Virus record (IMG/VR): IMGVR_UViG_3300002898_000197
Span: 1 to 57,131 of that record
Direction: 5' to 3' (one strand)
Source: a virus
Lineage: Duplodnaviria > Caudoviricetes
Length of the DNA: 57,131 nucleotides
Part shown: piece after piece, positions 1-56,705 of the stretch
Layout of the letters: each line of letters opens with the position of its first letter
Position numbering within the stretch: position 1 is the stretch's first letter
Program-made: the position numbers and the translations under genes
The notes under the pieces: generated by a model
What the model was told of the DNA's origin: nothing
The model's input: only the letters and a program-made list of their open reading frames with translations
Database searches by the model: none

Positions 1-123
1 TAAATTACAAGCTAGGCTAATACATAATGATTGTAGTCACTTTGAGGTTTGGTTGGACAAGTAGATAAATGTAGAATAACACAATAAAATTATGCTTTTA
101 TAGAAAGGGAGAAATATATACAT

Positions 124-867
124 ATGAAAAGTATAAAATTAATACATGGAGATTGTTTAGAGGCAATGAAAGATATACCTGATAAGAGTATAGATATGAT
201 ACTTTGTGATTTGCCTTATGGTCAGACAGCAAGAAATAAGTGGGATACAGTTATTCCCTTTAAACCATTATGGAATCAATATAAAAGAATTATAAAAGAC
301 AACGGAGCAATTATATTGTTTGCTAATGGAATGTTTGCTGCTGATTTAATGCACAGTAGTCCAAAGATGTGGCGATATAATCTAATTTGGGAAAAGACAA
401 CAGTAACTGGTTTCTTAAATGCAAACAGAATGCCATTAAGATGTCATGAAGATATATGTGTGTTTTATAAGAAGCTTCCTACATACAACCCACAGAAAAC
501 CACTGGGCATGTCAGAAAAGTTAGTGAAGCAAAACATAAGAAGGATTGTATCAACACTACAAATTATGGAGAACATGGGTTAACTACATATGATAGTACA
601 GAGCGTTATCCTAAAAGTATACTGCAGTTTGCAACTGATAAGCAAAAGTCAGCTCTGCACCCAACACAGAAACCAGTGGCTTTACTTGAATATTTAATTA
701 AAACATATTCAAATGAAGAAAATATAGTTTTAGATAACTGTATGGGTAGTGGTTCAACAGGTATTGCTTGTAAGAATTTAAATCGTAAATTTATTGGTAT
801 AGAATTAGATGAGAATTATTTCAATATTGCTAAAGACAGAATACATGGACACACAATAAAACAATGA
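124..867 (+). CDS. DNA methyltransferase, N4-cytosine/N6-adenine (beta class)
   Basis: DLPY catalytic motif near the N-terminus, HPTQKP, and DNCMGSGSTG SAM-binding motif near the C-terminus; RBS aaaggga. Confidence 0.93.
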   Translation: MKSIKLIHGDCLEAMKDIPDKSIDMILCDLPYGQTARNKWDTVIPFKPLWNQYKRIIKDNGAIILFANGMFAADLMHSSPKMWRYNLIWEKTTVTGFLNANRMPLRCHEDICVFYKKLPTYNPQKTTGHVRKVSEAKHKKDCINTTNYGEHGLTTYDSTERYPKSILQFATDKQKSALHPTQKPVALLEYLIKTYSNEENIVLDNCMGSGSTGIACKNLNRKFIGIELDENYFNIAKDRIHGHTIKQ

Positions 868-929
868 AAGATGTGTTTTATGGATATTGATACATAAACA
901 TTGATACATAAATAAGGAGGCGTTGTTGG

Positions 930-3629
930 TTGGCATTAAATAAACAAGTACATATATACGGAATTGCTACAGATGCGTTTTATAATGATGAAGAAATTAA
1001 AATTTATAGCCAGTTGCAAAAATATAGGCGTGAAAAACATGCATTAAAAAGAATATATGATGATGGGTATATAGATGATAGTGAGTATAAGCACATAGCT
1101 AACGTATTAAATATAACCATAAAAGTGATAAAAGATAGATTTAAAGAATTACTTTTAAGTAATGAAAAGGTAAGGGATTTAGATAGTAATCATATTAATG
1201 ATAAGAATGTTATATCAATCTTTGAGTCTACTCTTACTAGGGTTTTAGGTATGAAGACTAATGAGTTATCATTGAGCGTTATGGTGGTCGAGAGTTTTTA
1301 TTTTGAAATTCTTGAGCAAATAATCAAAAATGGATTTTATTATAACGGAGAAAAATATAGATACTACTCTTCGAGTGCTGGACAAATACGCACTAAAAAG
1401 GCAGTGTTCATTAAGGATAGTTTGTGGAGTAAGTATAGAAAAATACTAATGTGTGGCTTAACCATTGATAGGATAAACGACTTAGGCGGTATTAATGTTA
1501 ATAAATATTTAGCATACTTAGCCTTGACTAATAGTGCAACAGAGTTGTGGGAAGGTTTTGATATTGATAAGTGTATTGTGGTTAACGATTTTGAGACAAG
1601 TATTGATGGTGAAGTCGATTATATAGACGATGTTACATATAAGATTAAAAGACAGAAAATGAACGTGCCAGTAGAACATACTGATGGGTGTGGAATGATT
1701 TTGCCTTCAGTGAGTAAAAAGAATTTTATGGTTAGACTGCCTTGGGTAAAAGGTTTACTATCATCATTTGACTACTTGAAGTTCATTAAAGAACATAATT
1801 GTTCTTCTATCGTAAAGGATATTTATGGTAGAGAGTGGGATATAATCAAAGACGATATTCAAGTTATATTTACTAAGAGTCAATTTAAAATGCATAGATT
1901 TTATCAAAGTTGGGATGAGTATAAGAGTTTTTTTAAGCAGTATAATTGTCAAGCTGGTATTTGCAATATGGAAAAAGACTACATAGATGATTCGTGTGTT
2001 AGTTATCAAATGTTGCAGACACTAACTGACTATACTGAGGATGAGCTTAAAGCTATCACTGAGGAATCTAGGATAAAGATTAATAATATAGCAAGTGACA
2101 AAGAAGTTATGCTTGATGTTTTTGGTGTTAAAAAGGAGAAGAGATACAAAACATATCTTCAACAAGCTTTAGAGATTTACCCTGAAATATTGCAAGACGT
2201 ATATTGTAGGCGTACACTCAATGATATAAAGAGGAGTATGGTTAAAAGATACAGATCAGGGAAAATAGATATTGAGAGTAAATATACATTTATACTTCCA
2301 GACCTTTATGCTTTTTGTGAATACTTATTTTTAGACATTAAAAAACCAAAAGGGTTATTGGTAGATGGCGAGGTTTCTTGTCGATTGTTTGATAGTGGAG
2401 TTAAGTTAGATTGTTTGAGAAGTCCACATTTAATGGCTGAACACGCAGTTAGAAAGAATATTGTGCACAAAGATATGAAGAAGTGGTTTGACACTGATGG
2501 ATTATATACTAGTACACATGATTTAATATCTAAGGTGCTGATGTTTGACAATGATGGCGACACGTCTCTTGTTGTAGCAGATAGTACATTTGTTAAAATG
2601 GCAGAAAGAAATATGGAGAATTATGATAATGTACCTTTGTATTACGATATGAAGAATGCGCATGATGTAATTTTAGACAACAATACAATATGGGAAGGAT
2701 TAAATAACGCTTTTACAGGTGGCAATATTGGTGTTTATAGTAATGATATTTCTAAGATATGGAATAGTGGTGTGTTTACTAGTGGTAGTGAGAAAAAACA
2801 AAGCGAAGCCCTTAATGTGATTAAGTTGCTTTGCATGGAAAATAATTTTGTCATAGATTTCGCAAAAACACTATATCAACCAGAACGACCAAAGGACATT
2901 AATAGAATAATTAAAAAATATACCAACAATAAGCTGCCATACTTTTTCAGATTTGCAAAAGATAAGACCAAGAATCAGGTTGTGGATATAACCAAAGAAG
3001 AGTATATAGACACAGATACAAGTATAGTAAATAGATTAAGAAAACTATTTGTGAATCGCAGATTAAAATTTACTATCGAGAATTTTGGAAGATTTAATTA
3101 TAAGAATTTAATGCACAATAAAGATATTCTAGTAGATATGGAAGTGATAGAAAAGTTTGATGAGCTAAATACAATGTATCACTTTAAAATAAATCAAAAG
3201 AACAAGAGTAATGTTAACTACATAATGAAACTTGTGAATGATGAGATAATGACATTGGGATATGATAGGTCTGATATAGTTGACATGTTAGTCGCTTATC
3301 AGTTCAAATTAACAGATAGTGAACACAAAAATGTGTTGTGGAGTTGCTTTGGAGATGTTATAGTGGAAAATTTAAGAAACAATATATCTGAAGATAGTAT
3401 ACAGTGTAGAGATTGTGGTAATAGATTTATACCTAATTATCATAATGAGAAGTTATGTAATAAATGTGCGACCTATCAACCAATAGAAAATAAAACTATT
3501 GCGTGTATTGATTGTGGTAAAGAGGTTTTGGTGGATGCTAGAAACATGACTAAGGTTAGATGTGATGGTTGTCAGAAAGAACATAGAAAGGCTTGGGATA
3601 GAGAAAGAAAGAGAAAATCAAAGGATTAA
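930..3629 (+). CDS. yonO: YonO-like single-subunit DNA-dependent RNA polymerase with C-terminal Zn ribbons
   Basis: 899 aa; catalytic FDNDGD motif, TDGCG, RLPWVKG and LRSPH motifs of the RdRP-like/YonO family; four CxxC pairs at the C-terminus; lies upstream of the late genes as in SPbeta; TTG start with RBS aaggagg. Confidence 0.9.
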   Translation: MALNKQVHIYGIATDAFYNDEEIKIYSQLQKYRREKHALKRIYDDGYIDDSEYKHIANVLNITIKVIKDRFKELLLSNEKVRDLDSNHINDKNVISIFESTLTRVLGMKTNELSLSVMVVESFYFEILEQIIKNGFYYNGEKYRYYSSSAGQIRTKKAVFIKDSLWSKYRKILMCGLTIDRINDLGGINVNKYLAYLALTNSATELWEGFDIDKCIVVNDFETSIDGEVDYIDDVTYKIKRQKMNVPVEHTDGCGMILPSVSKKNFMVRLPWVKGLLSSFDYLKFIKEHNCSSIVKDIYGREWDIIKDDIQVIFTKSQFKMHRFYQSWDEYKSFFKQYNCQAGICNMEKDYIDDSCVSYQMLQTLTDYTEDELKAITEESRIKINNIASDKEVMLDVFGVKKEKRYKTYLQQALEIYPEILQDVYCRRTLNDIKRSMVKRYRSGKIDIESKYTFILPDLYAFCEYLFLDIKKPKGLLVDGEVSCRLFDSGVKLDCLRSPHLMAEHAVRKNIVHKDMKKWFDTDGLYTSTHDLISKVLMFDNDGDTSLVVADSTFVKMAERNMENYDNVPLYYDMKNAHDVILDNNTIWEGLNNAFTGGNIGVYSNDISKIWNSGVFTSGSEKKQSEALNVIKLLCMENNFVIDFAKTLYQPERPKDINRIIKKYTNNKLPYFFRFAKDKTKNQVVDITKEEYIDTDTSIVNRLRKLFVNRRLKFTIENFGRFNYKNLMHNKDILVDMEVIEKFDELNTMYHFKINQKNKSNVNYIMKLVNDEIMTLGYDRSDIVDMLVAYQFKLTDSEHKNVLWSCFGDVIVENLRNNISEDSIQCRDCGNRFIPNYHNEKLCNKCATYQPIENKTIACIDCGKEVLVDARNMTKVRCDGCQKEHRKAWDRERKRKSKD

Positions 3630-3874
3630 TTCCACTTTTGTTTTTAAAAGTTAAAATCGCTGTAAGCCTTGGTTTATAAGGGCTTAAGTGGGTTTGTTGT
3701 AAAGTTAAAAATCTACAAAAGCGTTACAAACCTAGTACCTATAAGGGTTACAGCCATTTTTTCTTGTCCCTCTATAATGGAGAAAGAACCCTTTATTCAT
3801 AGGGTTTATAACAATACAATAAAACAGCTATTTTATAGTTAAAAATAAATTAAAACTCAAAGGAGAGATGTTTA

Positions 3875-4498
3875 ATGATTTTAAAAGAGGCGTTTAGATA
3901 TCAAAACTATTTAAGCAGACTAATAGGTGAAGCAATTGATTATTTAACTACAACTAGTAATGTCATAATTACAAAACAGGAACACTTAAAATCTAAAAGT
4001 AATGCAGATGCAGAGGACGAAGTTGTTATAGCTGATAAGTATTCAGATATAGAGTATAAGCCTAACCAAGTCATAGACTTCTTGTTGGATGTATTAAACG
4101 AAAAAGAAAAGCTAAGCGATGCAATCAATAAGGCAAAGCTAAATACAGAAATAAATATAGATAGTTCTATTGCTATCAACAAGGAAAAACAACGCATAAC
4201 ATCTATATTCGACAGATTATCTAAAACTAAATCTGGAGAAAAAATTAGAAATGATAGTGATTATAAATTTAACGCTGAGGGAAATCAAGTTTCTTACTAT
4301 TATGAGGTTAAGGAAACTACTACAATAGATTTTGATAGGAATAAAGTCAAAGGCATTGTAAAAAGGTTGCGTAGGGAGTCTGATAATACCTCAAATGAAT
4401 TAGATAGGGTGCAGGTAACATTGGATGTGGACTACTCTCCTACTTACGAAATTAATGATGATTTTGAAGACTCGTTAGAGATATTTGTTAATAAATAA
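3875..4498 (+). CDS. coiled-coil protein, distant DIP1984-family-like; candidate partner of the downstream ncRNA
   Basis: Strong RBS aaggag; M.L.EA N-terminus, heptad helices and TIDFD..K..VK.L C-terminal pattern resemble DIP1984-type proteins (recognised by eye). Confidence 0.55.
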   Translation: MILKEAFRYQNYLSRLIGEAIDYLTTTSNVIITKQEHLKSKSNADAEDEVVIADKYSDIEYKPNQVIDFLLDVLNEKEKLSDAINKAKLNTEINIDSSIAINKEKQRITSIFDRLSKTKSGEKIRNDSDYKFNAEGNQVSYYYEVKETTTIDFDRNKVKGIVKRLRRESDNTSNELDRVQVTLDVDYSPTYEINDDFEDSLEIFVNK

Positions 4499-4513
4499 AT
4501 TTAATAAATAAAA

Positions 4514-4952
4514 ATTCAGCCATCATGTAGAGAACTAAAGTTGATTGACTAGCCATCAATCGCTTCTAGTGTAAGTGAAGTGTGACTCACACAGCGAATA
4601 CTGCTAGAGTGTATTATATTATTTAAAATCTTCATATCTTATTGATATGTTAGATATAAATAGATTACATATAAAACAATTATGCCAATGTGCAAACTCA
4701 AGTAGGTTGCTATATGTAATTCGTTTCTATATCCGACATTTCATTAACCACATTAATTATGTAAATTTGCCAATTTGATAATTCGAAAATACAATATCCG
4801 TTTTGCTATTAGATATGTGTTCTGCGAGAACACCTGTTGATGATATAAAGTTACGGCTTTATATATCCAAGGAAAAAGAATCTTAATTTTTATTTGAAAT
4901 AAATTGGTTGTGGCTAAGATTGATATTTTAGTTTTCTATATGATGGCTGAAT
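4514..4952 (+). ncRNA. large structured ncRNA (~440 nt), family unassigned
   Basis: 26-bp terminal stem 4514-4539/4927-4952 whose only two non-Watson-Crick positions are G:U on the + strand; internal long stem 4643-4743; hairpins 4817-4833 and 4843-4864 (UACG loop); no ORF of 60 aa or more. Confidence 0.75.
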
Positions 4953-5004
4953 AATTGATGTATTAATCAAATAATTGCGGTGGTAATTCTTCGGAATCCA
5001 TCTG

Positions 5005-5033
5005 AGGTGAGTTGTTGCGACGGCTCACCTTTT
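5005..5033 (+). terminator. intrinsic terminator-like hairpin
   Basis: AGGTGAGTTGT-tgcg-ACGGCTCACCT followed by TTT. Confidence 0.6.
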
Positions 5034-5120
5034 AAACAACAAAGTTAATTATAAGGTAGTATGCCTTTTGTAGAGGTGGTTGGTGTATTTGACTAATAAT
5101 GCACCTTCCACTTAATTTAT

Positions 5121-5191
5121 GCTTTCATAGTTTAATGGTAAAACAATTGACTTGTAATCAATAGATCACAGTTCAACTCTGTGTGAAAGCT
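5121..5191 (+). tRNA. tRNA-Thr(UGU), CCA not encoded
   Basis: Acceptor GCTTTCA/TGAAAGC, D arm GTTT/AAAC, anticodon arm ATTGA-cttgtaa-TCAAT, T arm CACAG-ttcaact-CTGTG. Confidence 0.93.
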
Positions 5192-5234
5192 TAATAGCCA
5201 GATGAAAGATGATTATTAAAAGTGTGTGGTGAAT

Positions 5235-5395
5235 ATCAGTGCTCACAAACAAACTCCCATTTTTCAAGTCTAAAACGCTTGTAAGCATGGACATGCACTG
5301 ATTTATGTAGGGCTTCAACTACTACTCTCTCACCTTTGAGGGAGCTTTTGTTATGGGAATTGTAGACTTGGATGGTGCAACTCCATCATTTCCCA
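5235..5395 (+). ncRNA. putative pseudoknotted small RNA ending in a T-arm-like hairpin
   Basis: Crossing helices ATCAGTGC(5235-42)/GCACTGAT(5295-5302) and CAAGTCTA(5265-72)/TAGACTTG(5363-70); hairpin 5325-5344; GATGG-tgcaact-CCATC at 5371-5387. Confidence 0.5.
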
Positions 5396-5459
5396 CTCTT
5401 CCATTATACAATGGAATGTATAATTATACACAAATATACACAGAAAGAAGTGATAGAAT

Positions 5460-5615
5460 ATTAACGATTTTAACGATTTAGAAAAAATGCTTAGAAAATG
5501 CGATAAGGTTTTTAAGGATAAAAGTAATCAACTTAAAAATAGATATAATCGCAAGTTAAAAATTAGAACCCAAAAGCGTATTGAAGAAACAAAGCCTGAA
5601 AATGACGATTTTTAA
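5460..5615 (+). CDS. small basic hypothetical protein (ATT start, or ATG at 5487)
   Basis: 52-codon open frame filling the gap before phoH; weak RBS. Confidence 0.4.
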   Translation: MNDFNDLEKMLRKCDKVFKDKSNQLKNRYNRKLKIRTQKRIEETKPENDDF

Positions 5616-5647
5616 AAACTAAAAAACTGGAGAAAGTTGGTGGTTTA

Positions 5648-8786: not shown

Positions 8787-9065
8787 ATGAATAAACAAAA
8801 TTTTGTAAAAAGGTTATCAACTAATACGGGTGCAAGTCAAGCACAATCTAAAGAGTTTTTAGATATATTTTTAGATACAGTTACAGAAGTTTTAGCTGAG
8901 GGTGAAGATGTTAATTTTGTTGGCTTTGGTAAGTTTAGTGTGGCTGAGAGAGCTGAAAGAAAGGGTAGAAACCCACAAGACGGCTCGGAGATTATTTTAC
9001 CCGCGTCTAAATTACCAAAATTTAAAGCAGGAAAATCTTTGAAAGATGCAGTCAACGAATCATAA
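8787..9065 (+). CDS. hup: HU-family DNA-binding protein
   Basis: MNKQ...GFGKF...RKGRNPQ.G..I..PA...PKFKAGK.LKDAV signature. Confidence 0.96.
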   Translation: MNKQNFVKRLSTNTGASQAQSKEFLDIFLDTVTEVLAEGEDVNFVGFGKFSVAERAERKGRNPQDGSEIILPASKLPKFKAGKSLKDAVNES

Positions 9066-9500: not shown

Positions 9501-9526
9501 TTATACATAAAATGAGGGTTTTATCT

Positions 9527-24089: not shown

Positions 24090-25115
24090 ATGGCACGTTC
24101 AACAGTATATAATCAGATTACAACACCAGAGTTAATAGAGAAAATTTGCATTGAAAATAAAGAACTGTATGAGGACTTTTTAGGCTATCTTGCCAGTATA
24201 GATAGGGCAAAAAGTACGATAGATAGCTATAGAAATGATTTGGAAATTTTCTTTGTGTGGAATTTAACAGACAATAAGAATAAAGACTTTATAGATATTA
24301 CCAAGCGTGAATTTGCAAGGTTTCAAAATCATGCTTTAAATTCATGGGACTGGAGTTCTAACAGAGTTAGGAGAGTTAAGTCAGTATTATCTTCACTCTC
24401 TAATTTTATTGAAGATATTTTAGATGAAGAAACAAAGTATAAAAATTATAGATCGATAGTCAATAAAATAGAAAATCCTGTTAAAGAATCAGTTAGAGAA
24501 AAAACTATATTGTCAGATGAGCAAGTTGACATTCTATTAGATGCTTTGGTTGGGCAAGAAGAGTATCAAAAGGCGTGTGTTATAGCATTGGCGGCTTTAA
24601 GTGGTGCTAGAAAATCCGAGTTATTAAGATTTAAAGTTGACTTTTTTACAGATGACAATATTGTATTTGACGCTTTATATCGCACACCTAAAATTGTAAC
24701 AAAGGGTAGAGGCAAAGGAAAAATGTTAAATAAATATGTGTTATTAGAGTTTAAAAAATATTTAGACTTATGGCTAAAAGAACGAAAAAAAATAGGGATT
24801 GATAGCGAATGGTTATTTATAACAAAGCAAAAAGGCAAGTGGGAACGTATGAAAATTAGTACTCTTGATAGTTGGACAAATCAATTTTCTGAAATACTAG
24901 GTGTTCCATTTTATTTTCACTGTATGAGACATCAATTATGCACAAGACTTATTAGACACTCATTACCACAAAGTGTTATACAAGAGTATTTTGGCTGGAA
25001 TTCGGCAGAAATGATTTCGATCTATTCTGATTTAGACATTTCAGATGAGTTTGGTAAATATTTCAGTAAGGAAGGCATTATAAAAGTTGAGGAAGGTAAT
25101 TTTGACGAACTTTAA
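24090..25115 (+). CDS. tyrosine recombinase (YomM-like)
   Basis: SGARKSE, TKGRG, HCMRH, GW and C-terminal Tyr catalytic set; N-terminal SAM-like domain. Confidence 0.93.
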   Translation: MARSTVYNQITTPELIEKICIENKELYEDFLGYLASIDRAKSTIDSYRNDLEIFFVWNLTDNKNKDFIDITKREFARFQNHALNSWDWSSNRVRRVKSVLSSLSNFIEDILDEETKYKNYRSIVNKIENPVKESVREKTILSDEQVDILLDALVGQEEYQKACVIALAALSGARKSELLRFKVDFFTDDNIVFDALYRTPKIVTKGRGKGKMLNKYVLLEFKKYLDLWLKERKKIGIDSEWLFITKQKGKWERMKISTLDSWTNQFSEILGVPFYFHCMRHQLCTRLIRHSLPQSVIQEYFGWNSAEMISIYSDLDISDEFGKYFSKEGIIKVEEGNFDEL

Positions 25116-25156
25116 TACTACTCTCCCACAATAAAAGAGTCGTTTTATTGAGTTAA

Positions 25157-33013: not shown

Positions 33014-36000
33014 TTGAATTTAAAATATGATAATTTTGGTAAATTAGAAAAGCTAGATGTTTATATGGTTAGTCAAGACATGAAAAGTAAAGTCCCCATT
33101 CAAATACATAATATTAAAATAGAAATGCGTGACCTTGAAATTAGTAAGGTCACTTTTGATGTAGATGAAGAAGAAAGTATCATAATGGATTTATACACAT
33201 GGGAGAAATATGAAGGTACTACATGGGAAGAATTAGCTGGGCTAACATGGTTAGATATTACAAGAAGTAAAGACTACACTTTGTTTGAAAGTTTAAGAAT
33301 TATACATATACCAGCACTTGGTGACAAGGCATATTTTCAGCTATCCACTCCAAATGAAACACAAGAAAATAAAAGAAATTATAAATCATGCACCGCTTAT
33401 AGTTTAGAGTATCAATTAACTCAAAAAGATGTATCTTATTTTATTATTAATATGGGAGCTATAGGTTCTAGAGATGGCATTGTACTTTATGATAAGATAA
33501 ATCCTGACAAAAGCTTATTAGACTTAGCGTTAAAAAATGCACCTAATTGGTCAGTTGGTGAAGTAGATACTTCTATTGCACTAAAGTCACGAAGTTTTGA
33601 GATTGATAAATCAGACATATACAGTTTTTTAGTAGACGATGTTGCTGATGCTTATAAGTGTGTATTTTTATTTGACACTGTAAATTGCAAAGTTAATGTT
33701 GTTGCTTTAGAAAACTATGGTAAAGATACAGACATACATATTTCATCAAAAAACTTAGCTAAAAGAATTGCTATAGAAAGTGCTGAAGATTCTATTTTTA
33801 CTCGTTTTTATGTTGAGGGTAAAGATGGTTTAGATATACGTGACGTTAATTTAGGCAGTGATTATATTGAAGATTATTCATATTATAATTCACCCGAATG
33901 GTTAGGTAGTCAAGAGTTATGCGATAAATATAACGATTATATAGGGCTTAGAGAAATGCAAAGAGCACTATATATAAATAAACAAAAAGAAAATATTAAT
34001 AAATTAAATCAGTATCATGAATTAATGAATAGAGTGCCAGATAATTTTGATAGTATGATTTGGGCTGAGTATGGTTTGATTGAATTACGTACTATGCGTG
34101 ATACCTATCAAAATGTTGTGGATTCTCAGATAGAAAATGGACATAATTTACCAAGCCATATAAATCATGATGCATATCTAATTAACAAAAAGGCATTAGA
34201 CAATATTAAAGCAGAGTTAATAGTGCGTGAAAATGAAGTAGATGTGGTTCAGCTTGCTTTAGATAATATAGCTATAGAGTTAAAGCAGATTATTGACGTG
34301 GCAGATAAAAATACTTATTTTACCAAAGATGAACTTATAATATTTAGTTCGCTGGAAGTTAATACAGATTATTCTGATGAAAGTTATGTAATTACTGATA
34401 GTATGCCAGATGAAATGGTCATGCAAATAAAGGAAGACTTATATACCTCAGCAGTAAAAGAAATATATATATCTAGTCACCCACAATACTCATTCAAAAC
34501 AGAATTGCTAAACTTGTTTAATATACCTGAGTTTAATCCAATAAAATCTGGATTTGATTTAGGAAGTTTTGTTACATTGTCAATACGAGATAATTATCAT
34601 ATAAGGCTTAGATTAATAGCTATTGATATTGATTTTAACAATTTAGATAGTTTGACAGTAGAGTTTAGTAACATGACACGCTCTAGAGATGGTTTTGATG
34701 ATTATATGGCTTTAGTGAAAAACGCAATTAGTGGTACTTCTACTAGTATAACAAGAAATTTAAACACAAGTTTAATAGGAGTACAAGAAGGTTTAAGCAC
34801 TATAGAATCTATTGCTAGAAAAGGTGTTAGTTATGAGTATTTATTTGCTAATTATGCTTCCGTAGGTACGTTAGAGGCTGTTGACGCTAAAATATATAAT
34901 TTAGAAACTACATATTTAACAGTAGAGCAAGCTAATATTTTATTTTTAACAGCTGAACAAGCTGATATTAAATATGGTAATGTTGAAGAACTGAATTCTG
35001 ATGTAGCAAATATAAAAACATTATTAGCAGGTAACATAACCGCTGATAACATTAAGGTTGGTACTATTACTGCTGAGAGTGCCATAATTGCTGATGCAGC
35101 TATTACTAGAGCAAACATAGAGATGGGTGCTATTAACTCTGCATTAATAGAAGATGGTGCAATTGGTACTGTACAAATTGCAAATGGTTCTATTACTGAT
35201 GCTAAGATTGTTGAACTTACTGCAAATAAAATTACAGCTGGAACTTTATCAGTTGAGAGATTAATCATAAGAGATACTGTCAATCCAGACCAAAGTTTAA
35301 TTTATCAAATAAACAATATAGATGGTGCTTTACAATCTGTAAGAGGTGATACTTTAAATGGTGAAATTCTAACAGAGCGTACTATAACTGCTGATAGAAT
35401 TGTTGCAGAATCTATAACAGCCAATGAAATAGCCGCGAATGCTATCACAGCTAACAAGATTTTAGCCAATGCTATTACTGCTGATAAGATATTAGCTAAT
35501 GCGGTAACAGCTGCTAAAATTAATGTAACTAATTTAAGTTCCATATCAGCTAATATTGGAGAAATTACCGCTGGAACAATAACAGGTGTTGATATTTTTG
35601 GTTCTACATTGACATTGGGTGGTGCTAATAATACCAATGGGACTCTGACAGTCTATGATTCCAGTAATAATATAGTTACACAATTAGATTCAATGGGGAT
35701 TTCCACAAGTGATTTAAATTTTAAGTTTGGAAATGACTTCGGCTTCGAACAGGGGTATTTTTCAATAGGTAAGACAGGCATTCAGATAAATTATGGATCA
35801 GAGAAGCGTGGTGGTAGCACTGGATATTATTTTGATTGGTATGATACTTTTCTATATACAACAGGTGAATTGCATTTAGTCCATAAACTTAAATATTCGC
35901 TTACAGGTGAGTCAAATGATTATTGGAATACAATGTCTACTAAAACTATTATCCTAAAACACGATGGCATATTTTTTGAGTCAGATGTAGGGGAGCCAGA

Positions 36001-39104: not shown

Positions 39105-39194
39105 GTTTAATCAAATCTACATTTTATCTTAATATTAACTTGCAAAACAATACAAAAATAAAAATTCAAATTTTAAAAAAGGGGTGATGAATTA

Positions 39195-42241: not shown

Positions 42242-42291
42242 ATCAGCATAATGCATAAAACAATGACTGTGGTATTACACATTATGCTGAT
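42242..42291. other. candidate attP site of the serine integrase
   Basis: 50-bp dyad with perfect 12-bp outer arms ATCAGCATAATG/CATTATGCTGAT and partial inner symmetry, centre AC at 42266-67; overlaps the integrase 3' end. Confidence 0.7.
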
Positions 42292-43912
42292 GTCTTTCTA
42301 TTATATCTATATTAAAAACATTAGACAATTCCTTTATTTTAACATTAAAAGTCACATTTATATCTTTTATACCCACTTCTACTTTATTAATAAATTTAGG
42401 TAGTATCATTTTCTTTGTTGGTATATCTGCATTTTCTAATAATTGCCTATAAGTAGGAATTGATTCTTTAAATGAGATTAGTTCATCTTTTTTAATTTGT
42501 AGACTTTTAGCCTTTTTACTATAATTTTCTAACTTTTCTCTTTCTATATTCAACTCATCTGTTTTAGTTTTAATTTGTTCTGTTAGTAATTCTTCTGTAA
42601 ATTTGCTTGTTCCCATAAGAACATTCACAATCTCATCTTTTAATATTTTAATAATATTTTCTAATTTAGATATATTCTGTTCCATAATATCTATTTCTTT
42701 TTTAGATAGCTTTTCTAGTTTATCTTGTTGTTTTTTAAATTCATCATCTACATTTATTTTACCTAAGCTATCCATATAAACAAATAATTGTTTCAAGATA
42801 ATATCTTCAACAGATGATTGTGAGTGATATTTATTACTACATTTATTCATACCATTTGTTTTACCATAACATTGATAGAATGGTTTCCTATCTCTATTCC
42901 ATGTACCGTCTTTTCGTTGATAATGGTTATAAGAATACTTTAGTGTCATTCGTTCGCCACATTCACTACAATATATATACCCTGTAAAAAGTAGAGGACT
43001 TTTAGTTTGATGGGGAATATTTGTTTTTTTACTTCCCCCTCTAGACATAACTATATTTTTTGCTTGTTTCCATTGCTTTTCTGATACTATAACCAAATTT
43101 TCATGTTTAATATCAGATAATTCACAATCATATTGATTCTTATATATACCATCTTTTTTTCTTCCATAAGTAAATCTTCCTTTGTATATAGAATTTTTAA
43201 TTATAGTTAATATAGTTTGTCCAGCCCATTTTTTACCCCTTTTGGTAGGTATTTTTTCACTATTTAATATTTGAGCTATTTTTCTTGATCCATAGCCTTG
43301 TAATGTGTAATAGTTAAATATTCTTCTAACTACTCGGGCTTGAGTCTCATCAATAATTAGTTTTTTTATTTCTTTATCTTTATGGTTATATTCACCTGTA
43401 GAAACATGTCTATAGCCATAAGGTGCTTCGCTTCCTTGAAACTCACTATTTTCCCTCATTAGTGCCTTGGCTTCTTTTGTTCTAGCTTGTGTTTTTTTAC
43501 TTTCACCAGATGCTTGCCAAAATGTAATATAATTTAATAGATTATCTACATGCTCTTCAAACTTTCTTTGTCCTTCAGATACAGACCACATTTCTACACC
43601 TTGTTCAACGAACCATTTTAATATGAAAGGTGTTTCTTCTTCTATACGACCTAATCTATCATACATATAAACTAGTATTACATCAAATTTTTTCTTCAAA
43701 GCATCTTCTTTTAATTCTTCTAACTTTCCTCTTTTATTAGCATGTATTTTAAACCCTGATACGCCTTTTTCAATATATTCACCAACAAACTCCCAGTCAG
43801 GATGTTGTTTAATATATTTTTTACATGCATTTCTCTGCATAGGTATATCATTATCTATAACTTGTTGATTTGTACTTACTCTATAAAAACATACAACCCT
43901 TTTTTTTGACAC
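42275..43912 (-). CDS. large serine recombinase (integrase, SprA-like)
   Basis: YRVST catalytic Ser, DRLGR, PYGY recombinase domain, CSECG Zn ribbon, coiled coil; GTG 43912 behind RBS gggagg is a likelier start than 43942. Confidence 0.95.
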   Translation of the reverse strand: MSKKRVVCFYRVSTNQQVIDNDIPMQRNACKKYIKQHPDWEFVGEYIEKGVSGFKIHANKRGKLEELKEDALKKKFDVILVYMYDRLGRIEEETPFILKWFVEQGVEMWSVSEGQRKFEEHVDNLLNYITFWQASGESKKTQARTKEAKALMRENSEFQGSEAPYGYRHVSTGEYNHKDKEIKKLIIDETQARVVRRIFNYYTLQGYGSRKIAQILNSEKIPTKRGKKWAGQTILTIIKNSIYKGRFTYGRKKDGIYKNQYDCELSDIKHENLVIVSEKQWKQAKNIVMSRGGSKKTNIPHQTKSPLLFTGYIYCSECGERMTLKYSYNHYQRKDGTWNRDRKPFYQCYGKTNGMNKCSNKYHSQSSVEDIILKQLFVYMDSLGKINVDDEFKKQQDKLEKLSKKEIDIMEQNISKLENIIKILKDEIVNVLMGTSKFTEELLTEQIKTKTDELNIEREKLENYSKKAKSLQIKKDELISFKESIPTYRQLLENADIPTKKMILPKFINKVEVGIKDINVTFNVKIKELSNVFNIDIIERHQHNV

Positions 43913-43940
43913 TATATAAACCTCCCTATCTGTTTTATTC

Positions 43941-43969
43941 ATTCTACCATAGGTATAAAAATAAGTAAA
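43941..43969 (-). promoter_or_regulatory. integrase promoter
   Basis: TTTACT-17 bp-TAGAAT with extended TG; hairpin 43968-43993 just upstream. Confidence 0.6.
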
Positions 43970-46430: not shown

Positions 46431-46676
46431 TTATTTACAAGTAAAACCCAAAATACTCCCATCATTAACTACAGCCTCTAATCCATATTTCTCTTTCATA
46501 GTAATACAATCTTCTAACGTAACCTTATTTTTGTCATACAATAAAATGTCAATTTTATTGCAATTACACCTCTCTTTATCTCGTCTATTCATATGTTTTA
46601 CTCTCTTTTTCTCACTTATGTAATTTACGACTTTTTGATAAAACGTTATTTTTGATGTTGGAATTATTTTTATCAT
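46431..46676 (-). CDS. hypothetical protein
   Basis: ORF with RBS aaggag. Confidence 0.65.
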   Translation of the reverse strand: MIKIIPTSKITFYQKVVNYISEKKRVKHMNRRDKERCNCNKIDILLYDKNKVTLEDCITMKEKYGLEAVVNDGSILGFTCK

Positions 46677-46678
46677 AA

Positions 46679-46837: not shown

Positions 46838-46851
46838 ATATGTTTTCCTTT

Positions 46852-48244: not shown

Positions 48245-48273
48245 ATATTAACACACTATTCTGATTATGTCAA
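48245..48273 (-). promoter_or_regulatory. sigmaA early promoter
   Basis: TTGACA-17 bp-TAATAT with extended TG. Confidence 0.75.
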
Positions 48274-48296
48274 TAGTTTTATTTGTTGTTTATCTT

Positions 48297-48812: not shown

Positions 48813-48815
48813 ATT

Positions 48816-49394: not shown

Positions 49395-49403
49395 AATATC
49401 CTC

Positions 49404-49604: not shown

Positions 49605-49624
49605 GTTTTACTCCTTTCTATGTG

Positions 49625-52023: not shown

Positions 52024-52026
52024 ATT

Positions 52027-52233
52027 TTATGTCCTTTCATTAACCCAGTTATTTGCCTGTGCAAAGTTCATTATTGTTTCGCCCACTTCTAATACAGGCA
52101 TTGACATAAAGCCTTTTTCTATCATTAAATAAATATCATTTATCTCCTGATATTCAATCCCCTTTTCTTTCAATTTGGCTTCTAATACCCTACACTGAGG
52201 GCATTTATTACTGTATAATATAACCTTTGCCAT
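52027..52233 (-). CDS. glutaredoxin (NrdH-like)
   Basis: CPQC active site, SMPVL; adjacent to nrdD. Confidence 0.88.
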   Translation of the reverse strand: MAKVILYSNKCPQCRVLEAKLKEKGIEYQEINDIYLMIEKGFMSMPVLEVGETIMNFAQANNWVNERT

Positions 52234-52318
52234 TTAGTACCTCCTTATTATGTTATTTTTTATACTAAACCTACTAAGTAGGATAGTTTCATTTATTGTT
52301 TACCATAACTTAATTAAT

Positions 52319-52657
52319 TTAATTACTTAATGTTACATACTTGTCACAAAAATCATCAATCTCGAATATTTCTAAATGCTTATAATCCTCCAATATCATA
52401 TCATTAGTTAAAATTTTACGAAAAGAATTATCTCTTCCTTCAATTGTTGGTATAGTTATATTACCTATTTTTCCACAAATAGTACAATAGTTACCTAAAT
52501 GTAGACGATCTACTATACGTTCACCTGTATTATATTTTAAAACAATTTTAATTTTTAATAAACAATCCTCATATGTATGCTTATGCCTAGACTTCTTAGG
52601 TGGATGTCTAGTGGATTTCTTTTTGTATTTAGGAATATCGTCTGGAATATTAATCAT
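52319..52657 (-). CDS. hypothetical protein with His/Cys metal site
   Basis: HKH.Y..C...YCTICG. Confidence 0.7.
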   Translation of the reverse strand: MINIPDDIPKYKKKSTRHPPKKSRHKHTYEDCLLKIKIVLKYNTGERIVDRLHLGNYCTICGKIGNITIPTIEGRDNSFRKILTNDMILEDYKHLEIFEIDDFCDKYVTLSN

Positions 52658-52684
52658 ATTATCACTCTCCTTTGAAACTATTGA

Positions 52685-52876
52685 TTATTTATACTTCCAA
52701 TCACTCAACCAATTTTTTATATTCAAGTAGATTGAATACATTAACGGTAGAGCAATAAGATTATTACCAAGTTTAGATGGTATTGCCCTTGTCAATGTCC
52801 AAAAAAAGAGTATCAAGGTTACCAACCCAAAAGTAGTTAAATATATTACTATATCTTTCTTATGTTTATTTATCAT
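52685..52876 (-). CDS. small membrane protein
   Basis: Two hydrophobic segments. Confidence 0.6.
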   Translation of the reverse strand: MINKHKKDIVIYLTTFGLVTLILFFWTLTRAIPSKLGNNLIALPLMYSIYLNIKNWLSDWKYK

Positions 52877-52905
52877 TCTTATTCGACCCTCTCTTATTGA
52901 TTGTG

Positions 52906-53139
52906 TTATTCCCCTTTTATCTCATCTTCCTTAATAGCTAATCCAGTCTCACAAAACTTCTTAATATCTTTAACCACTCTTAGTAAATCATTTTTAGTAT
53001 TATTACGACTTACGTTCTTTACTTTATCGTATATTACACCTGATATAGATTTTGCACCTATACCTATTCCTTGTAATCTAGCTTTTTCTAATTCTGCTTT
53101 TAACCTTTCTTCAAATTGCTTTTCTTGTTCTGATGTCAT
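52906..53139 (-). CDS. hypothetical protein
   Basis: RBS aaggagg. Confidence 0.7.
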   Translation of the reverse strand: MTSEQEKQFEERLKAELEKARLQGIGIGAKSISGVIYDKVKNVSRNNTKNDLLRVVKDIKKFCETGLAIKEDEIKGE

Positions 53140-53159
53140 GTTTTATTCCTCCTTTTAAT

Positions 53160-53420
53160 TTATTTAAACTTTATAGTCTTATACTTCTTCATTGCATCTT
53201 TCCTGTTATCAAAGATGTTATCTTTTTCATTTATATCTATGTATATACTTATGCCTTTATTTGGGATAAGTCCAATTATAACATCAGGATAAATCGTCCT
53301 CGTCTCAAGAAATAACACTTCTTTTATGTGAAGATTGGATAGAACACGTAGGTAATAAATATCCTGACCTTTTTCGTATAAATCTTCATAGTTAAAGCCC
53401 ATTTTGACTATCCCAATCAA
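53160..53420 (-). CDS. hypothetical protein
   Basis: ORF in operon; start uncertain (53420 or 53402). Confidence 0.6.
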   Translation of the reverse strand: MIGIVKMGFNYEDLYEKGQDIYYLRVLSNLHIKEVLFLETRTIYPDVIIGLIPNKGISIYIDINEKDNIFDNRKDAMKKYKTIKFK

Positions 53421-53613
53421 ATGCTATATTACAACACTTGCAATGTGTTGCAAGAGGATATAAAACATAACCCTCTTCGTCCAAACTTAAATAGAATTTA
53501 GAACCACATTTAGGACACATAAACTCTGGATATTGTAATTGCATTAGCATAGGCTTCGCTTTATCTTTCATATTATCCTCGTCCCCTTTCATCTTTAATA
53601 ATAATCTTTCCAC
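53392..53613 (-). CDS. small Zn-finger protein
   Basis: CPKCG...CKCC; start probably the internal Met after RBS aagggg. Confidence 0.6.
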   Translation of the reverse strand: MERLLLKMKGDEDNMKDKAKPMLMQLQYPEFMCPKCGSKFYLSLDEEGYVLYPLATHCKCCNIAFDWDSQNGL

Positions 53614-53792
53614 ATTTCATCCCAATATTTTTCACTTTCAATGAAGCAACTTTTACAGCATATAATATAATTTGATTCTTCATCATGGTACATAGTACTC
53701 ATTCTTTTACGTTTTGGATAACGCAACCATCTACTGCATATGTCACAATATCCGAATATCTTTTTGATTAATTTCATATGTATTACTTTCAA
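53595..53792 (-). CDS. small Cys-rich hypothetical protein
   Basis: CDIC...CCKSC. Confidence 0.6.
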   Translation of the reverse strand: MKVIHMKLIKKIFGYCDICSRWLRYPKRKRMSTMYHDEESNYIICCKSCFIESEKYWDEMWKDYY

Positions 53793-53817
53793 TATATAAA
53801 ATATATCCCTTATAATA

Positions 53818-54408
53818 TTATATTACCTTTATCTTTGAAAACTCTGGGTAATTCCCTTTTTGCCAAACATAATGAGCATAAGCTACACTATCTGTCCCTT
53901 TACCTTTGATAAAGCTCATGCGTTTATGATGTACGAATATGTATTGTGGCATATAATTATCAAAAAACTCTTTTCTAGCTTTTGTTTCTAAGAAATTAAG
54001 TCTTAATAACATAATCACATAACCACCATCTTCTACATCATTTAATGCCTTTTGTATTATAGGAAGTGCTTGATTGAATGGTGGATTAGTAATGATGATA
54101 TTAGGTTCAAACGACTTGACATCTAGTTGTAAATAGTCTCCCTTTGTTTCTGCTAATGAATCTTCCCTAATATCAATACAGTTTATATTGCAATTACCAA
54201 ATACATTTTTTATAGCCTCTGGGTATGACATTGATTCATATGGTTCTATTTTCCCACCTGCACATGGGTCAATAATTTTATAACTATTCCAAGGTATTTG
54301 AATTGTGTTATTTAACTCACGAAGAAATAATTCTATATCTTTAACTGGCGTTTTATAGTAATCCGCTATATGTTGTTTTCTTGCATCACTTCTATTAGTA
54401 CTACTCAT
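53818..54408 (-). CDS. small DNA adenine methyltransferase
   Basis: DYYKTP, IDPCAGG, ITNPPF, LLRLNFLE motifs. Confidence 0.88.
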   Translation of the reverse strand: MSSTNRSDARKQHIADYYKTPVKDIELFLRELNNTIQIPWNSYKIIDPCAGGKIEPYESMSYPEAIKNVFGNCNINCIDIREDSLAETKGDYLQLDVKSFEPNIIITNPPFNQALPIIQKALNDVEDGGYVIMLLRLNFLETKARKEFFDNYMPQYIFVHHKRMSFIKGKGTDSVAYAHYVWQKGNYPEFSKIKVI

Positions 54409-54443
54409 TTGTTGCCTCCTTTCTCAATCAAATATATCTTTTA

Positions 54444-54833
54444 TTAATTCGATATAAAATCCATACCACAATCTTTAAATAAGTTTAGTTGCTGATTCTT
54501 TTTCACTAGGTAATTGTAATCTATTTTATCACAGCTATTTTGATATATTACCTCACCAATCATTCCAATAACCACACAGACCACAAGCGATATATAAGAG
54601 TTAACCCCAAACATCATTAGTGCAATAAACATTGGCAAAAATATGCCACATAGCATCCAAATATCAAATACATGCACTCTATTTGATGCGTAATCATGCT
54701 CTTTTGCAACTATTTTGTCTATTTTATTTAATTTTTCATATGTATATCCATCCCACTTTTTATAAAAATGTATTAGTGTTTGTAAATCTCTTTTCTCATA
54801 ATCTTCAAGGTTAAAAAAGTCAATTATTCTCAC
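54444..54833 (-). CDS. membrane protein
   Basis: Two TM segments. Confidence 0.7.
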   Translation of the reverse strand: MRIIDFFNLEDYEKRDLQTLIHFYKKWDGYTYEKLNKIDKIVAKEHDYASNRVHVFDIWMLCGIFLPMFIALMMFGVNSYISLVVCVVIGMIGEVIYQNSCDKIDYNYLVKKNQQLNLFKDCGMDFISN

Positions 54834-54848
54834 CCTCTTTCCATAAAA

Positions 54849-55085
54849 TCATCCTTTTATTTTCTCTTCTTTATAGTTGCTTAACATACCGTGCATATAC
54901 CAATCAGTAATCAATCCATTATATCCATAGTTTACGATAGCACCGTCATGCTTATAAACCTCTATAATCTCCCCCATTCCATCCATGAGCCTATAATAGC
55001 GCCCTAAGTCCTCCCAGCCCAAGCACAAAACACCCAAGTCAACATCTTTTTTAACATATAAATTCATTTGTTCCACACCTCTCAA
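54849..55085 (-). CDS. hypothetical protein
   Basis: Probable start ATG 55067 after RBS gaggtg. Confidence 0.65.
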   Translation of the reverse strand: MRGVEQMNLYVKKDVDLGVLCLGWEDLGRYYRLMDGMGEIIEVYKHDGAIVNYGYNGLITDWYMHGMLSNYKEEKIKG

Positions 55086-55101
55086 TCAAACTGCAATTTT
55101 A

Positions 55102-55686
55102 TTAAATGATTTGCCAAAAAATTATCGGCTCATTTCTAATTCCTACTCCTTGTGGATATTTTGTAACTTCTAACCATCTGTTATGTATTCCATATGTGTA
55201 TAACGTTTCTAAATCTCGTTTAATTGAGTGCCTATCTATTCCATATATATTATTTATAATATGCCATTCAGAGATTTCTTCTGATACATTTCCGTAGCAT
55301 GATAGGAGTGGATGTCTATACATATGTCTTAGTGGTATTTTTAACTCAGAAGCCTCAAAAATAAAGTCTCCGTTTTTTTCTATTTTTGTTACTAAATTAT
55401 AGTTTTGAATATCGTCATATTTAATTCCGTCGCTAATAATTAGTTTATAATCATTTTTCTCAGCTATATCCCATATGTTTTTTATGTAATTTACATCGTT
55501 TTCTGATTGATCTACAATGTAAAATGGCAGGTCTTCCTTAATTACTTCATGGTCTGTTCTAATAGTGCAAAAATTGAGTTGGTCTATTAGTTGTATATAT
55601 TCTTCATATGAGTTGGGAATATAAAACTTATGTACATTTAACCCCATGCTAACAATATTTTTCAAACTTTTAATCTTATCAAACAT
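55102..55686 (-). CDS. hypothetical protein
   Basis: 194 aa, RBS aaggga; bounded by dyad motifs on both sides. Confidence 0.75.
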   Translation of the reverse strand: MFDKIKSLKNIVSMGLNVHKFYIPNSYEEYIQLIDQLNFCTIRTDHEVIKEDLPFYIVDQSENDVNYIKNIWDIAEKNDYKLIISDGIKYDDIQNYNLVTKIEKNGDFIFEASELKIPLRHMYRHPLLSCYGNVSEEISEWHIINNIYGIDRHSIKRDLETLYTYGIHNRWLEVTKYPQGVGIRNEPIIFWQII

Positions 55687-55772
55687 TCAATCTCCCTTCT
55701 CAATCAAACCGTAGTTTTATTTTCCACACGTTATTCTTCATTATTGAAGAAAATCATTCACTAGTTAAAATT

Positions 55773-55934
55773 TTACTTTCTATTTGAATCATACATTAGA
55801 TGTATTTTTAAAAGCAACCACGCTTCTTTCGACTCTTGAAATTCCATTAATATAAATTGTTTAATCATATTTTTAAATAACCACCAGCAATGCTTCCAGT
55901 CTTTTTTGTCAAAATTTAATATTCTTTTTATCAT
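55773..55934 (-). CDS. 53-aa hypothetical protein (not in the ORF track)
   Basis: MIKRILNFDKKDWKHCWW...; RBS aagggg. Confidence 0.55.
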   Translation of the reverse strand: MIKRILNFDKKDWKHCWWLFKNMIKQFILMEFQESKEAWLLLKIHLMYDSNRK

Positions 55935-56139
55935 ATTTCCCCTTTATTTTAAACATTTTATTTTGTATTGATTTACCAAAATAATAAATAGAACGCATTA
56001 AAAACATTGATAGTAAACCAACAAAGCCATAGCCAATAAGTGCAGTTGTTGATTCGTCTGCATCCGATATAATAAATGTAATCAAAGTTATTGTTTGTCA
56101 TATAATTATTCCTAATAGAATAAATAAAAGTTTATCCAT
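55909..56139 (-). pseudogene. small membrane protein gene with an in-frame TGA at codon 14
   Basis: RBS gaggag, MDKLLFILLGIII*QTITLITFII...; hydrophobic frame continues past the stop. Confidence 0.5.
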
Positions 56140-56173
56140 TTAACCCCTCTCCTCGTGTGCAGGTCTTATACTC

Positions 56174-56362
56174 TCAAACTCTGCTTCTGTTATTAATTTC
56201 CTGTAATGCTTCTAATCTCATATCTTCTTTAATATCTACAATCCAGCCGTCAATATTAAAACACATTTTAACATTTGAAGAGAAATCAACATATATTTGC
56301 TCTATATATTTTTGTCTTAACTTTTTTAATCTATTAATAAATGTATAATCGTTTCTTATCAA
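56174..56362 (-). CDS. hypothetical protein
   Basis: RBS aaggag. Confidence 0.6.
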   Translation of the reverse strand: MIRNDYTFINRLKKLRQKYIEQIYVDFSSNVKMCFNIDGWIVDIKEDMRLEALQEINNRSRV

Positions 56363-56415
56363 AATTTCACTCCTTTCAATAAAAGTGATATTTTATTAAT
56401 ACCCACACATGTAGT

Positions 56416-56598
56416 TTATCTTATAGGTTTTACATTAATTACTTCATCCACACCAACATCAAGATTATCACTCAAATAGTCAATAATCATTTTATCAGAA
56501 ACAGCTATTGGCATATTATCTTCTCTTATTTCTTCAAATGAATCAATTGGTAAGTCAATTATATATTCGGTTCTTGTAACTACTCTCACTTTTGCCAT
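56416..56598 (-). CDS. hypothetical protein
   Basis: RBS aaggag. Confidence 0.65.
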   Translation of the reverse strand: MAKVRVVTRTEYIIDLPIDSFEEIREDNMPIAVSDKMIIDYLSDNLDVGVDEVINVKPIR

Positions 56599-56705
56599 AC
56601 CCTTCTCCTTTCAATCAAATAAAATCAAATCAAATTGATGTTTTATTGCAAAATACGATTTTAGAAACCCTATGAAATCAACGTTTCGTGGGTGTTGATT
56701 TTTTG

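Follow-up and report, generated by a model that had tools for sequence, protein, structure and literature searches.

A dispersed short inverted repeat at the boundaries of exchangeable gene modules in SPbeta-like phages

The sharp junctions that phage mosaics show at gene boundaries pose an old question, namely whether they arise from random illegitimate joining followed by selection, or whether conserved linkers guide the exchange. Here we describe a short inverted repeat, AT(A/C/G)AAA-N6-TTT(T/G/C)AT (the dyad), that recurs between the genes of a viral DNA of 57,131 nucleotides (IMG/VR record IMGVR_UViG_3300002898_000197, positions 1 to 57,131; this whole stretch is referred to as the window) and of phages related to SPbeta, and we compare it with the closest described systems. 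The dyad is at least a boundary mark of exchangeable gene modules in SPbeta-like phages; whether dyads are, beyond this, protein-bound joints at which the neighboring gene or block is exchanged, gained or lost, we consider to be about evenly balanced.

Core sites of the Xer/dif type have inverted arms around a 6-base center, with AT-rich inner arm ends, dif itself being a single site with arms of ~11 bases. The dyad likewise places its arms around an exact 6-base spacer, and a predicted Xer-like recombinase gene with the catalytic residues adjoins one of the sites; it differs in occurring at tens of sites, with arms of only 6-9 bases. The attC sites of integrons are imperfect, folding palindromes of 57-141 bases, one to a cassette, which form a one-way array beside intI and attI. 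Gene-sized units between recombination-type sites, together with a tyrosine recombinase, are present here as well; the dyads, however, span 18-22 bases, lack an attC-like fold, and accompany genes of either strand at places distant from the recombinase gene. In mycobacteriophage L5-like phages, the immunity repressor binds stoperators, asymmetric sites of 13 bases that follow the direction of transcription; these resemble the dyads in that tens of copies of one short site stand in short intergenic gaps, whereas the dyad is symmetric and conserved across distant phages. The PeSL cassettes of T4-type phages, said to have been described by Arbiol et al. in 2010, reportedly combine an early promoter with a stem-loop in ~50 bases, border small accessory genes of plastic regions, and have been proposed as crossover points for modular shuffling. 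Dyads, too, are found at the ends of exchanged gene blocks, but they have 18-22 bases with a free spacer, and neither a promoter consensus nor a stable hairpin.

SPbeta itself carries a dispersed element, the SPbeta repeated element (SPBRE), which Kohm et al. (2023; PMC10516654) describe as bound by the master repressor MrpR/YopR, a protein with a tyrosine-recombinase fold. As derived here from ten published target regions, SPBRE is an oriented sequence of ~21 bases, about CAATACAAATAATATGTATA-like, which occupies the spacer in TAGACA-17-TATAAT promoters; 11 copies are present when up to four mismatches are allowed. Like the dyad, it is a short repeat at many intergenic places of an SPbeta-like phage, and some copies abut a ribosome-binding site (RBS). 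Its sequence, defined by a 15-bp MEME motif, is unlike the dyad and follows the direction of transcription; the two elements stand at separate places in SPbeta, and SPBRE shows no effect at the edges of homology blocks (see below). We therefore rejected the dyad as the MrpR operator on grounds of both sequence and position; the PamR site, also considered, is unrelated. A query with SPbeta YopR found no match at E<=1 in the genome from which the window derives (80% complete and fragmented), and a YopQ-like open reading frame (ORF) runs off the end of one of its contigs, C202, of 2.5 kb.

Sequence, position and distribution of the dyad

A pattern scan of the window for ATVAAA-N6-TTTTAT yields 22 strand matches, corresponding to 15 distinct sites, whereas 100 dinucleotide-preserving shuffles yield a mean of 0.63 (standard deviation 0.90, largest value 4), none of them reaching 22. 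The original prediction, made from sequence alone, had listed 12 copies and estimated about one chance match per window; all 12 are present with their positions and spacers, and the shuffle mean agrees with the estimate. Only the 6-base spacer is enriched, spacers of 2-5 and 7-11 bases giving 0-2 matches each. The arms extend to 8-9 bases at several sites (CAATAAAA...TTTTATTG), and 6 of the 15 sites fall in 54.4-56.7 kb. When the third base is left free (AT.AAA-N6-TTT.AT), the half-sites of four phage contigs carry A, C or G in this position and T in none of 38 sites, although, of the four hexamers, ATTAAA is the most frequent in the window.

The 12 listed sites had been placed at gene boundaries and our crude ORF calls agree for all of them; they bracket the single-gene units 124-867, 54444-54833, 54849-55085, 55102-55686 and 56416-56598, as had been claimed. 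At the left end, ATAAAA-TTATGC-TTTTAT (84..101; dyads are given without strand) stands 22 nucleotides upstream of the start of 124-867, and ATGAAA-GATGTG-TTTTAT (864..881) overlaps the stop of the same gene by 4 nucleotides, upstream of a YonO-like gene. The site at 3819..3836 follows a terminator-like hairpin and precedes the start of 3875-4498 by 38 nucleotides; that at 9507..9524 is directly 3' of the stop of 9093-9500, with such a hairpin next; that at 39110..39127 is downstream of the hairpin that trails 37523-39052; and that at 25131..25148, with 8-base arms (CAATAAAA / TTTTATTG), lies between the convergent genes 24090-25115 (plus strand) and 25157-25501 (minus strand), 15 nucleotides past the stop of the former. 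In the minus-strand arrays of small genes, a dyad typically opens at the stop codon of the upstream gene, or close to it, and leaves 14-26 bases to the following start, with the RBS directly adjoining. Sites here are 54427..54444, which lies between minus-strand genes and 18 nucleotides before the start of 53818-54408, 54843..54860, 55085..55102, 55703..55720, 56379..56396, which is 16 nucleotides before the start of 56174-56362 (minus strand), and 56629..56646. Three sites absent from the original prediction all lie inside ORFs: a perfect dyad with 8-base arms at 46541..46558, within the small ORF 46431-46676 (minus strand), and two pattern matches that may be due to chance, at 1323..1340 within the YonO-like gene and, in the minus-strand reading, at 34541..34558 within 33014-36079.

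Window positions 75-57131 correspond to positions 1-57057 of contig C69 (74,797 bases) in a 2.13-Mb genome bin of 221 contigs that is 80.5% complete; bases 1-74 were not found in this contig, and the window appears to derive from a somewhat longer form of the contig. The 899-residue protein encoded at 930-3629 (plus strand) is 45.7% identical to SPbeta YonO, over 94% of its length, and the genome holds counterparts of the SPbeta genes for YonJ, YonN (HU-like), YonF (terminase), YomM, YomI (tape-measure), YomG, SprA, MtbP, YorL, YorJ and YoqY. With this YonO-type polymerase and these counterparts, the source is thus an SPbeta-like phage or prophage, of an AT-rich host (30% GC) with strong Shine-Dalgarno sites. 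Polymerases of the YonO type are single-chain enzymes homologous to multi-subunit polymerases, and the one seen here belongs to a phage of a Clostridia-like, AT-rich host. The four phage contigs (C69 with 19 dyads, C143 with 12 in 12.7 kb, C19 and C44 with 3 each) hold 37 of the 70 sites of the genome in 98 kb, and the remaining 217 contigs hold 33 in 2.03 Mb; the dyad therefore belongs to the phage and not to the host. By the same crude ORF calls, 32 of the 37 are not wholly within an ORF and 30 overlap ORFs by at most 6 nucleotides, where 12-21% of the DNA is intergenic. As a rule, a dyad is preceded by the stop codon of one gene and followed by the RBS of the next.

The dyad recurs in other phages of this kind. 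When every 6-N(0-10)-6 dyad is counted without bias, ATAAAA with a 6-base spacer ranks first in C69 (10 against 0.21 expected), in C143 (6 against 0.04), in a further IMG/VR record, G106 (11 against 0.23), and in SPbeta (NC_001884), which has 14 dyads, 13 of them perfect against 0.2 expected. The SPbeta sites are at 2628, 12495, 24127, 39885, 44416, 57147, 83687, 95562, 99497, 111028, 113663, 116414, 128076 and 132746; one is inside the yorM ORF as annotated, and the other 13 either stand between genes or share 4 bases with a stop codon. If the degenerate position is admitted, with a reversed control for comparison, there are 38 dyads against 2 in Perkons, 23 against 2 in BUCT083, 16 against 2 in both phi3T and Goe11, 15 against 1 in SPbetaL1, 14 against 1 in SPR, 6 against 1 in Staphylococcus phage 6ec, 4 against 1 in SEP9 and 6 against 0 in MT835481; the D-1873 contig has 6 perfect dyads against 2. 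G106 places its dyads 0-25 bases upstream of the RBS, as the window phage does, and G003, whose YonO is 52% identical, has ATGAAA/TTTCAT halves in the same pre-RBS position. Two positions are conserved between SPbeta and the window phage, whose proteins at these places are only 28-38% identical: the gene of the YoqY counterpart has a stop codon that shares 4 bases with a dyad (95562 in SPbeta, 1704 in C44), and a dyad occupies the gap between the YomM gene and its convergent neighbor (yomL/yomM in SPbeta, 39885; 25131 in the window). The dyad family is thus common to SPbeta-like phages of Bacillus, Psychrobacillus and the AT-rich host of the window. We found no description of the dyad in SPbeta or its relatives in the papers searched, an earlier mention in Lazarevic et al. 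(1999) being possible.

Such a range of hosts is also what would be seen if the dyad were the site of a conserved Firmicutes host factor, a nucleoid protein or the host Xer, that the phages put to use: the same dyad is found in phages of Bacillus, Psychrobacillus, Staphylococcus (weakly) and the host of the window, and AAAA-N6-TTTT would have its A-tracts in phase with the helix and may thus bend DNA, which would suit such a factor. We nevertheless regard this as improbable. The host part of the genome carries the dyad only at background density (the 33 sites spread over 2.03 Mb), an excess over the reversed control is absent from all 100 related genomes, of which 60 belong to the same genus (against 54+45 matches versus 12+10 in the genome itself), and the relatives G001, G002, G004 and G005 in the IMG/VR portal show no excess of the dyad, G003 showing none of its ATAAAA form.

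The symmetry of the dyad is a property of the DNA. The 38 sites of the wide form comprise 18 perfect ones and 20 in which a single half is degenerate (C or G); this half is upstream or downstream with respect to gene direction about equally often, and compensated C-G or G-C combinations do not occur. The RNA hairpins that the dyads could form have energies of -0.3 to -4.9 kcal/mol, 8 of 11 being no better than -2.1. Because the symmetry is at the DNA level, with no covariation in RNA and with weak hairpins, the dyad is probably read as double-stranded DNA by a two-fold symmetric protein. That it acts instead at the RNA level, setting translation, processing or 3' ends through a small hairpin or a single-strand motif upstream of the RBS, is the least probable of the readings considered here and was rejected for the lack of covariation and the weak folds. 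The position of the dyads in the minus-strand arrays, mostly ending 14-26 nucleotides ahead of the start codon, would suit it, as would the frequent inclusion of the upstream TAA stop in the dyad and the z-scores below -3.5 at 3 of 11 folded sites; but A-G and C-U mismatches are common when the sites are read in gene direction, compensation at the variable position is found in 0 of 38, and some dyads lie between convergent genes or in divergent gaps. An Rfam search matched no family to the dyads and returned a tRNA only. A role as YonO promoter was rejected as well: in the published work on YonO (PMC5467207) the polymerase is described with one late promoter only, located upstream of yonK, and SPbeta has no dyad there.

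Dyads at the ends of exchanged gene blocks

For a view of gene exchange, six genomes (SPbeta, phi3T, Goe11, SPR, BUCT083 and SPbetaL1) were aligned all against all, with blastn blocks of at least 150 bases and at least 85% identity, dropping those block ends that coincide with a sequence end. Gaps between SPbeta genes contain a block end in 11 of 13 cases where they hold a dyad and in 76 of 183 where they do not (p=0.003); restricted to gaps of at least 40 bases, the numbers are 11 of 13 and 54 of 101 (p=0.03). The five other genomes, taken in turn as reference, give p values of 2e-5 to 0.005 for all gaps and of 0.003 to 0.04 for gaps of at least 40 bases, these tests not being independent of each other. 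Within 40 bases of the 98 dyads there are 157 block ends, and their placement is specific: 49 are at the far outer edge, so that the entire dyad is retained in the block, 1 is at the near edge, and 9 are at dyad positions 3-16. The pattern draws on 21 distinct dyads, and turning DUST off does not alter it. SPBRE serves as the control, with 40 sites, 36 block ends within 40 bases and 1 at an edge. Because block ends gather at the far outer edge of the dyads, unlike those around SPBRE, dyads may be regarded as exchange joints. Judged from these alignments, the blocks on either side appear to 'own' the same dyad, which is the trace to be expected from a crossover or insertion in or at a shared dyad, and not from a merely conserved operator.

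The spacers point in the same direction. There are 26 dyads whose 18-mer, spacer included, is identical in at least two genomes, and the 109 pairs of such 18-mers divide, by their 80-base flanks, into 43 with both flanks homologous, 36 with one and 30 with neither. The dyads at SPbeta 116414 and phi3T 107931 form an identical island between unlike flanks; at SPbeta 99497 and phi3T 89339, the same dyad, with its spacer and ~12 flanking bases, is inverted between neighboring genes that are unlike.

A similar pattern at the dyads of the window is seen in contigs from four other metagenome runs or studies (manure, groundwater, compost) that were aligned to 42000-57131; what follows refers to the 15 joints listed out of 30 and the 32 pieces listed out of 756. 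The dyad-dense end contains, between 54843..54860 and 55085..55102, a small minus-strand gene (54849..55085). A joint from 54861 to 55080, which starts one base past the first dyad and ends 5 bases before the second, skips 218 bases in 4/4 runs, so that the body of the gene (54862-55079) is lost and both flanking dyads stay, 6 bases apart. The next minus-strand gene between two dyads (55102..55686) is skipped in X5 and X8 by a joint from 55103 to 55701, which starts one base after 55085..55102 and ends 2 bases before 55703..55720, and in X3 unlike sequence sets in at 55103, directly after the dyad. A further joint in X5, from 55759 to 56628, ends one base before 56629..56646, while pieces end at 54444 in X5 and X8, the last base of 54427..54444, and at 55720 in X3 and X13, the last base of 55703..55720. 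All of these positions (54444, 54861, 55080, 55103, 55701, 55720 and 56628) are 0-5 nucleotides from the outer edge of a dyad, 55759 being the exception. X5 and X8 have a depth of 0 throughout the bin 55130-55634; such a break in contig coverage we do not count as a finding by itself. The original prediction had named as a check whether breakpoints of gene gain and loss fall within the N6 spacer. Their association with dyads stands, in that gain, loss or replacement falls 0-5 bases from dyad edges in four runs and block ends fall at the edges in six genomes; their location in the spacer does not, with the 9 of 157 at positions 3-16 noted above.

The prediction had also interpreted the dyads as an integron-like array, in which single-gene cassettes with one site each would be excised as circles and inserted elsewhere by a tyrosine recombinase, with crossover in N6 and tolerance for unlike spacers. 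Single genes are indeed bracketed by dyads, gene-sized indels fall between dyads, a tyrosine recombinase that looks intact is present, and three shared early genes stand in different order in the window phage and G106. The 218-base indel, however, leaves both dyads in 4/4 runs, so the cassette does not carry one site; block ends at the border of the spacer number only 2-3 of 157; the arms have 6-9 bases without an attC-like fold; and sites accompany genes of both strands, the late operon included, with no one-way array adjoining the recombinase gene. The interpretation of an integron-like array is thus not borne out, and we consider it very improbable.

A more serious alternative, possible though still unlikely, takes up the binding site of a regulator that the original prediction had also named: a phage-wide regulator, either a repressor or a shut-off factor such as the counterpart of the HU-like YonN, would use the dyads as operators or roadblock sites, and they would survive as conserved islands between swapped genes. 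A symmetric site of 18-22 bp directly before the RBS of many early genes would be in keeping with this, and so would the location of the SPbeta dyads 57147 and 128076 in divergent promoter gaps. SPbeta already has one dispersed operator, SPBRE, with a repressor of recombinase fold (PMC10516654). The genes for YonO and HU are near each other in SPbeta, D-1873 and Perkons, a conserved pair, and likewise in the window (930-3629 and 8787-9065). Against a regulator speaks first that SPBRE, a true operator, has 1 of 36 nearby block ends at its edge, compared with 49 of 157 for the dyads. Second, the spacers, which a protein binding the arms would not need, stay identical, and 66 of the 109 pairs are without homology on at least one flank. 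Third, the dyads are not at recognizable promoters, a sigma-70 promoter scan having found 98 against 95.1 expected, a result that is uninformative in DNA so rich in AT. An operator conserved from phages of Bacillus to those of Clostridia-like hosts would, moreover, probably be unusual, and the only paper that we found on YonN appears to treat it as a non-specific binder.

Returning to the dyads as exchange joints, several observations weigh against this reading, or limit it. Dyad gaps are longer than others (medians of 97-169 versus 39-49 nucleotides), a confounder only partly removed; SPbeta and phi3T compared alone give a borderline result (5 of 13 versus 29 of 183, p=0.053); and most block ends are at boundaries free of dyads, as in SPbeta, with 76 such gaps and 11 dyad gaps. 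The six genomes are kin, so that inherited junctions are counted repeatedly, and there are dyads, among them SPbeta 44416 with all six genomes, whose two flanks are conserved wherever the dyad occurs. The gene calls underlying the gene-boundary counts come from our own crude ORF caller. In the window, 12 of the 15 joints listed have no end at a dyad edge, and gene-sized skips occur at the dyad-free boundaries 44840-45140, 45213-45747, 45784-46168, 46157-46427, 52289-52923 and 53139-53379; because so many joints end elsewhere, dyads are unnecessary for exchange. Three laboratory hybrids of phi3Ts and SPbeta (Hyb1-3) switch parents inside long shared blocks and the switches cannot be placed at dyads. 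The edges of these shared blocks do sit at dyads. According to a preprint on the hybrids (10.1101/2020.05.06.055103), 15 of 16 recombination sites are in homologous regions and one, 'following yosA', is non-homologous; SPbeta dyad 116414 is between yorZ and yosA, and the possibility that the non-homologous site coincides with this dyad (116414-116431) is offered as a lead only.

Candidate binding proteins and a possible mechanism

The most likely candidate for a dyad-binding protein is the Xer-like tyrosine recombinase encoded at 24090..25115 (plus strand). It belongs to the Phage_integrase family (PF00589, 1.2e-18) and has a SAM-like N-domain; its R, HxxR, W and Y residues align with the catalytic residues of XerA (4a8e). 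The original prediction had named this recombinase, and its gene, with the catalytic residues kept, lies 15 bases from a dyad. The protein is 28% identical to SPbeta YomM, whose gene has the same place before the tape-measure gene, and it has counterparts in SPbeta, Perkons, 6ec and MT835481, as well as in the annotated yomM-like gene of phi3T. A dyad is near the recombinase gene in several phages: 15 bases after it in the window, ~400 bases downstream in SPbeta and phi3T, no more than ~60 bases from where the recombinase match ends in Perkons (a distance counted from the match, not from the stop codon), and 116 bases before it in 6ec and SEP9. Three results count against this part of the picture. 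MT835481, which has the closest recombinase (44% identity), has 6 dyads, none of them within 1 kb of the gene; G106, a 26%-complete fragment with 15 dyads, has no Phage_integrase match; and the D-1873 contig has no match to the window recombinase.

A second candidate is the HU-family DNA-binding protein encoded at 8787..9065 (plus strand), the YonN counterpart. Co-occurrence does not decide among the candidates: two recombinase-like genes are present in G003 along with YonO and HU, and in G107, which has dyads, no YonO or HU match was found in 109 kb (72% complete). The window phage and G106 have five proteins in common (dUTPase, a methylase, a 126-residue protein and two replication proteins), with no evident DNA-binding regulator among them.

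If dyads are exchange joints, the following course of events can be proposed. The dyad would be a site in double-stranded DNA for a two-fold symmetric protein; a phage protein would bind it, and a crossover or insertion would take place in or at the dyad, which would stay put with its own spacer while the neighboring block changes. The YomM-type, Xer-like recombinase may act on like sites of two genomes; by an alternative route, the annealing proteins of the phage itself could exchange blocks through the short identical sequence, leaving the same traces. The bound protein may have a regulatory role in addition. In its strongest form, the proposal is a dedicated system of module exchange, in which the Xer-like YomM of the late operon would act on tens of core sites at gene boundaries; this we regard as doubtful. 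As each site has a 6-base spacer of its own, only the same site on two co-replicating genomes would recombine, so that exchange between related phages would keep its register and scramble neither genome, and the dense arrays of dyads at small early genes would be the most active part.

What sets the dyad apart in either form is that a defined 18-base element marks the ends of homology blocks at its outer edge, whereas a known operator of the same phages does not. It is present in both SPbeta and phi3T, for which Bacillus subtilis 168 serves as host and which recombine under laboratory conditions, and the question is therefore directly testable, by crosses, by mutation of sites and by deletion of yomM. 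Involvement of the recombinase would represent a new use of Xer-like enzymes; if it is not involved, the dyad still marks module boundaries in SPbeta-like phages.

Further features of the phage

Alongside a single serine recombinase-like gene, the phage carries two or more that resemble tyrosine recombinases. The large serine recombinase (42275..43942, minus strand; phrog_95 integrase, weakly like SPbeta SprA/YokA) is at the switch from plus-strand to minus-strand genes. A 264-residue protein encoded in C143 (L059; 3828-4622, minus strand) consists of a tyrosine-recombinase catalytic domain only, with a lysine-rich N-terminus, and its contig is the one in which dyads are densest.

No close relatives at the DNA level were found in the phage collection. 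A scan of metagenome contigs with the 196-residue methylase found nothing closer than 70% identity, the G106 contig alone being rich in dyads. There are three DNA methyltransferase-like genes in the phage, at 53818-54408, at 124-867 and at 57291-58823 of C69; the first is shared with G106, and a dyad precedes it in both. One X5 contig skips 2141 bases (49737-51879), from inside 49625-50098 to inside the NrdD-like gene 50095-52023, which may reflect a variant, an intervening element or an assembly artefact. A gene for tRNA-Thr, with the anticodon TGT, is found at 5121..5191, in the otherwise ORF-poor stretch 4498-5648.

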